A stretch of 64,000 bases of DNA, from NCBI RefSeq assembly GCF_003018235.1, contig NZ_CP027437.1. One strand, 5' to 3'. Under the pieces are notes generated by a model. It did no database searches. It had not been told where the DNA came from and worked only from the letters and a program-made list of their open reading frames with translations. Every line of letters begins with the position of its first letter. Within the stretch, counting starts at the first letter, position 1. Origin of the DNA: Escherichia coli (GTDB lineage: Bacteria > Pseudomonadota > Gammaproteobacteria > Enterobacterales > Enterobacteriaceae). Position numbers and translations under genes: made by a program. Positions 4,898-7,899 of this stretch are shown here, one piece after another.

Positions 4898-5230
4898 ATG
4901 TACGAAGCTCTTTTAGTAGTTTTCCTTATTGTGGCAATTGGCCTTGTTGGTCTGATCATGCTGCAGCAAGGTAAAGGCGCTGATATGGGAGCCTCCTTCG
5001 GAGCAGGCGCTTCCGCTACGCTGTTTGGTTCAAGTGGTTCTGGTAACTTCATGACCCGCATGACGGCGCTGCTGGCAACGTTATTCTTCATCATCAGTCT
5101 GGTGCTGGGTAACATCAATAGCAATAAAACCAATAAAGGTAGCGAATGGGAAAACCTGAGTGCGCCGGCGAAAACCGAACAAACTCAGCCAGCTGCTCCG
5201 GCTAAGCCGACCAGCGATATCCCGAACTAA
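4898..5230 (+). CDS. secG: Preprotein translocase subunit SecG
   Basis: ORF 4850..5230; known N-terminus MYEALLVVFLIVAIGLVGLIMLQQGKGA from the ATG at 4898; 110 aa. Confidence 0.93.
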   Translation: MYEALLVVFLIVAIGLVGLIMLQQGKGADMGASFGAGASATLFGSSGSGNFMTRMTALLATLFFIISLVLGNINSNKTNKGSEWENLSAPAKTEQTQPAAPAKPTSDIPN

Positions 5231-5244
5231 AAAGTAGTATCCGT

Positions 5245-5331
5245 GCCGAGGTGGTGGAATTGGTAGACACGCTACCTTGAGGTGGTAGTGCCCAATAGGG
5301 CTTACGGGTTCAAGTCCCGTCCTCGGTACCA
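5245..5331 (+). tRNA. leuU: tRNA-Leu (leuU type)
   Basis: 87-nt sequence GCCGAGGTGGTGGAATTGGTAGACACGCTACCTTGAGGTGGTAGTGCCCAATAGGGCTTACGGGTTCAAGTCCCGTCCTCGGTACCA read directly; long variable arm; encoded CCA end; directly downstream of secG. Confidence 0.95.
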
Positions 5332-5344
5332 AATTCCAGAAAAG

Positions 5345-5368
5345 AGACGCTGAAAAGCGTCTTTTTTC
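5345..5368 (+). terminator. Rho-independent terminator after leuU
   Basis: Hairpin agacgctgaaaagcgtct followed by tttttt. Confidence 0.6.
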
Positions 5369-5405
5369 GTTTTATAGGCCAAGCAAAATATTCTTAATTT
5401 GATAA

Positions 5406-6359
5406 CTATTTGCCCAGGCATAAATCTGTTTCATCTAGTTTGAAATCTGTAATTTCTAACTTTTGCATTATTACCGGAAGCACTTGGTGAATTATTCTCA
5501 TGCCAGTGAGGATCTCGTTCATGTATATATCTGGATGAATGCGCGATTTATTGAAATCGAAACTTTCGGCTTCTGCTGCAACGCTAAGTTGGTCAGCGGT
5601 GTTATAAACCATTTCCAGAAGTTCGGCTCTTAACGGGATTCCCGCCCTGAATGCCATCATCTTGAGTTGATTCAACCAATTTTCGTAGTCTTTTTTAACT
5701 CTATAACGAAATTCTTTAAAGTTTGATGCAACAGGAGTATCAATTTCAATTTTGCATGCAGCAAGTGATATCAATGAACTCTGAATATTGATGGCTTCGC
5801 TTGAATAGACATCTAAATCGTCGTCCTGAATCAACTCATCAACATATGCTATGTAGAAACCATAAACATCATTCAGAGCATGATAAATATCATTAATTAC
5901 AGAACAATGAGCATTGCTCTCTAATATCTCCCAAAAAGCCTCTTCTTCGTCAGCATTATCGTCGTCAATATTAAGTCCTTCAGGAAAGGGAAGAGGTGTA
6001 GGAAAACCTATTCGCTTTAATACATCAATTGTTTCTTCAACCAAAAAGCCATCTTCGTCAGTAAGAGGTCGTGTTATATAACCCGTTTCAGCATCCTCCA
6101 TAGCTCGTTGAGCAAGAAAATGGATAAGCCGATCCCATTTCTCAGCATTCTCGACTGAGCCCGTCCATTCAACTAGTTGAGGAGAATAATCTCCTATTTG
6201 TGTAATATTTCTGAACTTTTTTTCCATATCAGCAGACATGTGTTCCCCTTTTTTCCATTTGCTAATTTGTGTTGAGGAAACACCTAAGTGGCTTGCTAAA
6301 TCTTTTTGAGTGCATTTCAGAGTATGTAATGCGAGGCGTACAAAATATTCACCATTCAT
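5406..6359 (-). CDS. HTH (XRE/Cro-CI-like) domain protein with an uncharacterised acidic/helical C-terminal domain, 317 aa
   Basis: Intact 317-aa ORF with an AAGGAA Shine-Dalgarno about 7 nt upstream of the ATG; N-terminal helix-turn-helix signature TQKDLASHLGVSSTQISKWKKGE; no catalytic motif recognised downstream; visibly AT-rich compared with flanking core genes; sits where K-12 has yhbX. Confidence 0.7.
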   Translation of the reverse strand: MNGEYFVRLALHTLKCTQKDLASHLGVSSTQISKWKKGEHMSADMEKKFRNITQIGDYSPQLVEWTGSVENAEKWDRLIHFLAQRAMEDAETGYITRPLTDEDGFLVEETIDVLKRIGFPTPLPFPEGLNIDDDNADEEEAFWEILESNAHCSVINDIYHALNDVYGFYIAYVDELIQDDDLDVYSSEAINIQSSLISLAACKIEIDTPVASNFKEFRYRVKKDYENWLNQLKMMAFRAGIPLRAELLEMVYNTADQLSVAAEAESFDFNKSRIHPDIYMNEILTGMRIIHQVLPVIMQKLEITDFKLDETDLCLGK

Positions 6360-6370
6360 CGGTCATTCCT

Positions 6371-6446
6371 TTTACTGAGAATAAAAACATAAAGTAAAAA
6401 TAGAATGCGCTGAAATTTACTTTATTTCATTTGGATTTTACTTTAA
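6371..6446. promoter_or_regulatory. Putative operator/promoter repeat array upstream of the HTH gene
   Basis: TTTACTTTAT at 6416-6425 and TTTACTTTAA at 6437-6446 (21-bp spacing), an inverted copy ATAAAGTAAA at 6389-6398, and a half-copy TTTACT at 6371-6376 next to the RBS. Confidence 0.35.
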
Positions 6447-6495
6447 TTCCGGATTCGGACACTGTGGCCCCTAAACACGGTCACATCTCTTAGCC

Positions 6496-6525
6496 GTAAA
6501 AAAGGCCGCATTTGCGGCCCTTATC
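6496..6525 (-). terminator. Rho-independent terminator downstream of argG
   Basis: Hairpin ggccgcaaatgcggcc followed by a T-run when read on the minus strand. Confidence 0.55.
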
Positions 6526-6540
6526 ATGAAAGCACTGAGA

Positions 6541-7899
<1,359 letters not shown>

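Follow-up and report, generated by a model that had tools for sequence, protein, structure and literature searches.

We analysed a 64,000-nucleotide stretch of Escherichia coli DNA (contig NZ_CP027437.1; hereafter the window), in which a gene for a 317-aa protein lies on the minus strand between the tRNA gene leuU and argG. We found that this gene belongs to a family of solitary cassettes that have spread horizontally and whose products join an N-terminal helix-turn-helix (HTH) of the XRE type to a novel domain. The segment 5375-6540 constitutes one self-contained cassette of this kind, made up of a promoter of ~100 bp with an array of boxes and a single gene for the two-domain protein. Given that the cassette seems to regulate only itself, and that members of the family lie at tRNA and transfer-messenger RNA (tmRNA) hot spots beside toxin-antitoxin (TA) and anti-phage genes, a defence module is the most likely reading. 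We tentatively propose, at slightly short of an even chance, that the cassette is a one-gene defence or abortive-infection-type (or related stress) module.

The DNA in front of the gene carries a family-wide operator-like element. The 120 bp 5′ of the start codon were lined up for 52 loci of the family, and the motif [TA][TA]AGTAAA was found, in either orientation, 87 times in the 100 bp before 51 start codons. This density, 17 per kb upstream of the gene, is ~140 times that of the remaining ~740 kb of the loci (0.12 per kb). At least one copy is present in 50 of the 51 loci, and at least two copies in 34. The full box is an 11-bp palindrome, ATTTA(G/C)TAAAT, around a central G/C, as reflected by the column counts over 99 sites (A74 T93 T95 T77 A97 G92 T98 A90 A92 A96 T73). 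Two to four boxes occupy the ~100 bp of upstream DNA that invariably accompany the gene, paired at 20-22 bp and mainly in inverted orientation. A four-box layout with spacings of 21/26/21 bp recurs, with centres at -92/-71/-45/-24 in Steroidobacter, -90/-69/-43/-22 in Photorhabdus and -103/-82/-57/-36 in Pseudoalteromonas. Save among syntenic relatives, an all-against-all BLASTN comparison of 600 bp upstream and 500 bp downstream found no shared DNA beyond the boxes and the open reading frame (ORF).

The E. coli cassette follows the same plan as these distant loci, with its boxes spaced at 21/26/19 bp on the minus strand. They are O1 (TTAAAGTAAAA, 6436-6446, centre -82), O2 (ATAAAGTAAAT, 6415-6425, centre -61), O3 (TTTTACTTTAT, 6389-6399, centre -35, inverted orientation) and O4 (TCTCAGTAAAA, 6370-6380, centre -16), the last of which is weak and matches the promoter-proximal box of other loci in position. 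The window has three exact copies of the 9-mer TAAAGTAAA, all of them in the promoter of the HTH gene. In a second E. coli allele of this gene the boxes are identical and the spacers between them are mutated. The boxes moreover co-vary with the recognition helix of the protein (S28-S-T30-Q31-I-S-K34-W35-K36, with W35 invariant). All eight loci with TTAAGTAAA boxes carry Ala at residue 30 (VSPAQISKW), directly before the invariant Q31, and loci with TTTAGTAAA boxes carry Thr at that residue (VSPTQISKW), a co-variation that runs in the direction that direct read-out would predict.

In many loci a promoter of the form TTGCAA/TTGACA-17-TAnnnT can be read by eye between the first three boxes. In the window, a weak candidate sigma-70 promoter (TTCAGC, 17 nt, TATGTT; 6386-6414, minus strand), also read by eye, overlaps O3, with O2 abutting the -35 element and O4 lying at about +1. 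With boxes on either side of the promoter and the 5′ untranslated region or overlapping them, binding should repress transcription. Taken together, the family-wide array points with high probability to an HTH protein that binds the ATTTA(G/C)TAAAT boxes and represses its own gene. The N-terminal XRE domain would make the contact, probably as an oligomer that spans two helical turns and most likely reads the box pairs lying at that distance, and the resulting autorepression would keep the protein scarce.

To look for partners of the gene, we clustered the ORFs within 5 kb of 57 full-length loci. No neighbour ORF family was conserved among them, and the family gene itself was the sole cross-locus family; the apparent extra clusters were antisense shadow ORFs or came from sister-species loci. 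With nothing else to regulate, the cassette should have its raison d'être in its protein.

The protein was modelled with AlphaFold2 from an alignment of 62 diverse members (A1) with the window protein as its first row, which also served for the conservation counts. The model is entirely helical, with five HTH helices and about 11 further ones, a mean predicted local distance difference test (pLDDT) score of 93.2 and a predicted template modelling (pTM) score of 0.86. It is softer in a loop at about residues 128-143, at about residues 271-290 (block pLDDT 66-79) and in the last seven residues. The Cro/CI-type HTH that the initial annotation had assigned to the N-terminus is borne out by Pfam (HTH_3 and HTH_19) and by the five-helix model, and covers residues 1-66 (6162-6359, minus strand). 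The acidic linker DDDNADEEEAF described there corresponds to residues 132-142, within an acidic loop of variable length (NIDDDNADEEEAFW, residues 128-143; 5931-5978, minus strand; block pLDDT 74). One cluster representative, P0192, appears by eye to have a ribbon-helix-helix-like insert in this loop.

The same annotation had recognised no known domain in the C-terminal part, and our searches agree. Residues 67-317 (5409-6161, minus strand) form an all-alpha domain (about 11 helices) for which no relative could be detected beyond its own family. Library matches were restricted to residues ~6-42, all of them XRE HTH (Pfam HTH_19 and HTH_3), and a Pfam scan of each of the 62 members returned HTH families only, with no match to Peptidase_S24 or any other peptidase. 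All seven matches to PADLOC-DB v2 fell within residues 2-49 (best E=1.9e-4), and none to the rest of the protein. NCBIfam likewise gave HTH-only matches, at 12-17 bits against curated cut-offs of 48-300, and the best PHROGs matches were phage transcriptional regulators, in the HTH part only. The family profile matched the HTH only among all PDB sequences, and at the structural level the C-terminal ~250 residues had no relative in the PDB. Foldseek returned only same-family members from AFDB50, all unnamed, and no match among viral models (BFVD). Literature searches on the protein accession, on yhbX with leuU, and on the box sequence found nothing relevant. The family has no name, 80% of its length is without a Pfam entry, and we found neither a structural relative nor any literature on it; on the model, residues 67-317 represent a new helical domain of a previously undescribed family.

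The conserved positions of this domain concentrate in the last third of the protein, where K203, K233, E246, E263, H275-P-D277, Y279, N281, E282, R288 and K300 are its only near-invariant polar residues. The family signature H-P-D-x-Y-M-N-E-x-x-x-x-x-R (residues 275-288; 5496-5537, minus strand) lies at the start of the last long helix. The column counts in A1 are 61/62 for H275, 61/62 for D277, 58/62 for Y279, 60/62 for E282 and 58/62 for R288. Helical periodicity places H275/Y279/E282 and D277/N281/R288 on two adjacent faces at the start of this helix. From these features we infer that the cluster is a functional site rather than core packing. The window protein carries all family residues (W35, G67, W75, K203, K233, E246, H275-P-D277, Y279, E282 and R288).

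Known motifs were compared with the signature by eye and rejected. HEPN proteins have Rx4-6H, and the family has R288-x2-H291 with H291 unconserved. Of the Fic motif HPFx[D/E]GNGR, 'HP' alone is in common, and the family motif stands at a helix start. The HD motif and the 'HPD' of J-domains came without fold support.

Clues to what the C-terminal domain might do were sought among neighbouring genes and fusions. Most neighbours are core genes at background GC, and the small low-GC neighbour ORFs mostly had no family match. Those neighbours that look co-acquired are mainly TA or defence genes, which were seen at no fewer than 7 of ~50 chromosomal loci, a suggestive number. They include Fic in two loci, vapBC in two unrelated hosts and a SIR2_2 protein (weak match), and the plasmid loci have ParDE with a resolvase, and Hok. 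In an uncultured betaproteobacterium (L019:5889-10915), a low-GC HNH-nuclease protein with a PDC-M68A/SduA-like N-terminus stands on one side of the family gene and a complete DarT-DarG on the other, and these genes are a small defence islet. In Providencia vermicola (L041:9153-10632), the family gene is immediately followed by a complete AbiEi-AbiEii pair beside tRNA-SeC; a possible 13-nt tRNA-end repeat at ~10801 may be the end of this islet.

Fusions were screened among the 150 best representatives. P0134, from a metagenome (L104:4419-5873), has the whole family protein followed at the C-terminus by a TIR domain (Pfam TIR_2, 3e-22), which matches PADLOC PDC-S66 at 1.4e-64 over model positions 137-280. 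Its gene, too, stands alone, between two core-like genes, fdhD and one of the CMD family. In P0251, a GIY-YIG nuclease domain replaces the HTH. Though single representatives, these proteins show that evolution has joined the helical domain to immune-type effector domains.

The C-terminal domain, with its polar cluster, may be the working part of the protein, acting as a sensor and/or effector. A cue such as infection would act on this domain, so that autorepression would be relieved and/or its own activity switched on. From context, we regard a defence or stress role as possible, at somewhat below an even chance. It is more doubtful, and for us clearly the weaker bet, that with this cassette a hitherto unrecognised family of single-gene immunity (abortive-infection-type) systems, found across Proteobacteria and a few other phyla, has its first described member; a self-repressing HTH would there be coupled to a new all-helical sensor/effector fold with HPDxYxNE...R as its active site.

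The frequency of TA modules among the neighbours could also fit an orphan antitoxin or a single polypeptide that works as a TA-like or addiction element. The HTH part would then behave as an antitoxin-repressor of the HigA/HipB type, and the C-terminal domain would be a fused toxin or a neutraliser of an unlinked toxin. Tight autoregulation is typical of TA operons, and there is weak similarity, at the level of the HTH, to HigA, MqsA, HipB and Xre-ParS antitoxin models. However, these antitoxin matches are confined to the HTH and score 12-17 bits against cut-offs of 47.7-90, no adjacent toxin gene is conserved in the 57 loci, and a single stable polypeptide has no obvious differential-stability mechanism. 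We consider a TA-type element quite unlikely.

The family comprises 747 cluster representatives at 90% identity and 332 at 50%, nearly all of 310-330 aa and of the same two-domain layout. Its hosts are Gamma-, Beta- and Alphaproteobacteria, Desulfuromonadota, Acidobacteriota and Deferribacterota. Members from Enterobacteriaceae are 69-74% identical to the E. coli protein, whose identity with those from Serratia, Pseudomonas, Oryzomonas and Gallionella stays flat at ~55%. In 39 hosts, the family gene averages 11 GC points below its surroundings. The GC deficit and the flat identity of ~55% indicate repeated horizontal transfer of the gene. A 98% identical copy on a 1485-bp contig (L015, JAIJJM010000762.1) of an actinobacterial metagenome-assembled genome labelled Collinsella sp. 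almost certainly comes from a mis-binned Escherichia contig.

The family is almost wholly chromosomal, and was found in 5 of 72,556 plasmids. One of these, the conjugative Vibrio campbellii plasmid pLA16-1 (L106:3939-6078), has a distant member (25% identity, hhalign probability 99.95) with a degenerate HTH, which lies between a gene for an 'integrase domain-containing protein' and a hok/gef gene. No family homologue was found by tblastn in 50,697 phage genomes, and IMG/VR held only two truncated remnants. In Gilliamella (L092:3016-3198 and L077:7962-8348; IMG/VR UViG_2915938813_000004), only the last 60-115 codons remain, and the L092 remnant adjoins a phage-type integrase and insertion sequence (IS) fragments. 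These 'viral' matches are not phage genes but truncated leftovers at a site of integration.

These searches bear on whether the gene is an orphan immunity repressor, left after decay of a prophage or satellite. Such an origin would accord with the Cro/CI-type HTH, the position at a tRNA flank, the phage transcriptional regulators among the best PHROGs matches and the truncated Gilliamella copies beside a phage-type integrase. Yet the PHROGs matches cover the HTH alone, the phage genomes and the BFVD models yielded no match, and IMG/VR gave two truncated edge matches only. Moreover, more than 50 independent loci would each have lost all but the family gene, and the neighbours are core genes. 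We therefore judge a leftover prophage repressor very unlikely indeed.

A position next to a tRNA recurs in the family. A tRNA or tmRNA gene lies within 500 bp of the family gene in 7 of 36 scanned loci as well as in the window, always with the 3′ end toward the cassette, as compared with a chance expectation of ~0.6 loci from the tRNA density elsewhere in those loci. In Pseudomonas sp. MYb185 (L023:7610-10903, the same as L098), the 3′ end of tRNA-Met recurs as a 48-nt direct repeat 1.9 kb past the gene. This repeat bounds an integrase-less islet of 3.2 kb downstream of rpoD that holds the family gene, a ribbon-helix-helix gene and vapBC. A tRNA-end repeat of at least 9 nt beyond the gene was found neither in the window nor in 4 of the 7 other tRNA-adjacent loci. 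In Salmonella enterica, 19 nt identical to the 3′ end of leuU (TTGGTACCGAGGACGGGAC) lie between metY and argG (L010:6214-6232), so that argG and the HTH gene are bracketed by direct repeats of the tRNA-Leu end; an equivalent was not found in the E. coli window. The 19-mer could be an old attachment-site (att) scar, or a chance or tRNA-like sequence.

The strong enrichment at tRNA and tmRNA 3′ ends, the solitary state without an integrase and the conserved H/Y/R/K set of the C-terminal domain would also suit a recombinase that inserts its own cassette at these flanks as a minimal one-gene mobile element. However, no terminal repeats flanking the cassette were found, and the boxes lie on one side only. 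No tRNA-end duplication was seen in 5 of the 8 tRNA-adjacent loci, and the one in Pseudomonas bounds a larger islet. The protein does not resemble tyrosine or serine recombinases, or DDE or HUH transposases, in structure, and the E. coli event is a replacement between fixed breakpoints rather than an insertion. A self-inserting recombinase is thus a very improbable explanation. That the protein itself places the cassette at tRNA and tmRNA 3′ flanks is a variant more remote than the immunity family proposed above.

The replacement was followed in 5426 complete E. coli genomes. The whole interval 5332-6540 is present in 236 of them (4.3%), at 97-99.8% identity and chromosomal every time. An alternative segment of 2047 bp with yhbX, annotated as a phosphoethanolamine transferase gene, is present in 5167 (95%), and the two states together account for all but ~20 genomes. 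Homology between the alleles stops just past the leuU terminator (5373/5374) and restarts exactly at the argG stop codon (6541), which sets the strain-variable segment of 1166 bp (the HTH allele, read on the minus strand) at 5375-6540. The initial annotation had let the element end at 6495; the variable segment reaches further and takes in the hairpin (6498-6525) of the argG terminator.

Orthologues of the HTH gene, at 69-74% amino acid identity, occupy the same slot in Salmonella enterica, Citrobacter koseri and an Enterobacter, and the argG terminator of the Salmonella copy is recognisably similar to that of the window. This indicates an old presence/absence polymorphism rather than a recent insertion in the source strain. 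The first description of the gene as inserted where K-12 has yhbX was right in that MG1655 has yhbX between argG and leuU; 'inserted' is better put as one of two old alleles at the slot. In two E. coli strains with the HTH allele, the argG 3′ end (6541-6833 versus L108:1512-1804) is only 95% identical, a divergence seldom seen in core genes, which points to recombination tracts surrounding the slot.

The two E. coli alleles of the HTH gene differ at 17 codon positions with a ratio of nonsynonymous to synonymous substitutions (dN/dS) of 0.175, indicating purifying selection. Together with hundreds of homologues (best E=4e-209), this value shows that the ORF is not a chance ORF, and together with the model (pLDDT 93, pTM 0.86) it shows that the gene is functional and not decaying. 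The view that it is simply an Escherichia core or housekeeping gene, for which the syntenic orthologues in related genera could be cited, is refuted by the distribution over 236 of 5426 genomes. The initial annotation had itself proposed checks on universal conservation and on C-terminal homology to a housekeeping family; in addition to this patchy presence, no such family was matched and the gene stands ~12 GC points below its flanks. The probability left for a core gene is negligible.

The long residence at one slot in four enterobacterial genera bears on another possibility, namely that the protein is only an accessory transcription factor. Its C-terminal domain would then serve ligand binding and oligomerisation, and it would control unlinked host genes together with its own promoter, with no immune role. 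The HTH, the operator array and the autoregulatory layout are what such a regulator would show; no effector domain is recognisable in it, and most neighbours are core genes. Against it, the only conserved target is its own promoter, and the exact box occurs nowhere else in the 64-kb window. A cargo-less single ORF that crosses bacterial classes would moreover require the host regulon to be re-invented in each host. The near-invariant K, K, E, E, H, D, Y, E and R residues resemble an active or ligand site more than they do a plain dimer interface, although they would suit ligand sensing too. We regard a mere regulator as fairly unlikely, and retain the defence or stress module as the favoured explanation.

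Several points weigh against that explanation. No PADLOC defence model matched outside the HTH, and no homology assigns an activity to the C-terminal domain. Ordinary core genes are the neighbours at ~85% of loci, so that the apparent association with defence islands is modest. Each of the two fusions, with TIR and with GIY-YIG, is known from one cluster representative, the former on only one metagenome contig, and both are possible accidents. An accessory regulator of long residence would account equally well for the presence of the gene, at 69-74% identity, in this slot of four enterobacterial genera. As for self-regulation, a consensus promoter scanner found no promoter in the E. coli cassette at its own threshold, the promoter being weak, and autorepression rather than activation is read from box positions only. 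The eight co-varying loci are probably two or three independent lineages, which makes their statistics weak. Of the roles that the initial annotation had offered, namely an orphan prophage-type repressor, a regulator or a single-gene defence determinant, the phage searches thus disfavour the first, the boxes favour autoregulation, and the neighbours and fusions lean toward defence or TA functions.

The remaining features of the region are as follows. The coding sequence runs from 6359 to 5406 on the minus strand, with an ATG start and a TAG stop at 5408-5406, exactly as first described between leuU and argG, and is annotated in RefSeq as WP_001588285.1, 'helix-turn-helix domain-containing protein'. 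A Shine-Dalgarno sequence (AAGGAA, 6366-6371, minus strand), read from the sequence, precedes the ATG by 6 nt. Downstream, 38 nt separate the stop codon from a bidirectional terminator-like hairpin (5339-5368, both strands) that is kept in the yhbX allele; its minus-strand stem, 5362-5345, is followed by CTTTTCT. Because the hairpin scores as a terminator on both strands, it is common to leuU (+) and the HTH gene (-). The tRNA-Leu(GAG) gene leuU (5245-5331, plus strand; ARAGORN, Rfam tRNA 52.8 bits) lies outside the variable segment with its 3′ end facing the 3′ end of the cassette, in agreement with the tRNA 3′ flank first reported, and it was the sole Rfam match in 5150-6700. On the other side, the argG terminator hairpin (GGCCGCAAATGCGGCC, then a T run; minus strand) forms part of the variable allele and is also preserved in the Salmonella HTH allele, and argG itself occupies 6541-7884 on the minus strand. 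The wider gene order is folP-glmM-secG-leuU-[HTH gene]-argG-metY-rimP-nusA. The AT-richness that had been noticed at the outset was reproduced, with a GC content of 0.35-0.41 across the HTH gene and 0.50-0.57 on either side. As also stated there, we saw neither an integrase nor a partner gene in the window, nor any repeat of the tRNA 3′ end.

By profile and fold the protein belongs to the XRE/Cro-CI superfamily (Pfam HTH_3 and HTH_19), and autoregulators that join an HTH to a further domain are well known. Controller (C) proteins of restriction-modification (R-M) systems and Aca autoregulators are HTH-only proteins of 60-120 aa that regulate an adjacent partner, R-M or acr genes. They have in common with the cassette palindromic boxes at their own promoter, to which binding is here predicted, whereas the window protein has 317 aa with an extra domain of 250 residues and no adjacent R-M or acr partner. 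Stl-type island master repressors and two-domain phage repressors, which pair an HTH with a helical sensor domain, are among the closest known systems. RRNPP/AimR receptors also combine an XRE HTH with a large helical domain, and the AimR dimer binds two short sites ~25 bp apart, which resembles the 21-bp box pairs of the cassette; the TPR-like helical repeats that follow the HTH in these receptors were not seen here. Lambda CI and LexA differ by their self-cleaving S24 peptidase domain, which Pfam found in none of the 62 members, and the C-terminal domain here is all-alpha. In contrast to ImmR/ImmA and DdrO/IrrE, no partner or fused HEXXH metalloprotease was found in the 57 loci or by the Pfam peptidase scan.

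The antitoxin-repressors HigA, HipB and MqsA share the HTH class and, presumably, autorepression, and are frequent neighbours in accessory islets; unlike them and Xre-RES, the cassette has no linked toxin and its NCBIfam scores of 12-17 bits stay below the cut-offs. The catalytic fold of tyrosine recombinases, with its R-K-H-R-H/W-Y set, was not found, nor were the att direct repeats of their elements in the window. CapRel(SJ46) is a fused toxin-antitoxin that senses a phage protein; it and the single-gene PADLOC candidate PDC-S66 may be functional analogues, in that one gene would combine control with a sensor or effector. The core protein has no sequence or fold relation to either, and one family member has a TIR of the PDC-S66 type. 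As far as our searches of sequences and literature reach, there is no earlier description of the operator shared across the family, of its solitary life-style or of the polymorphism with yhbX that extends over several genera.

If the proposed reading holds, the cassette would be a compact (1.1 kb) portable module with a new fold, a defined operator and a natural presence/absence polymorphism in four genera, and would add a new family to the one-gene defence and stress systems. The ATTTA(G/C)TAAAT box and its protein would also provide a new orthogonal repressor-operator pair for engineering. A defence phenotype or an enzymatic activity, if shown, would sharply raise interest in the cassette. 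Even if the protein were a pure regulator, a cargo-less self-regulating gene that is under purifying selection and has spread between bacterial classes would need explaining, as would its alternation with a phosphoethanolamine transferase gene at one slot.

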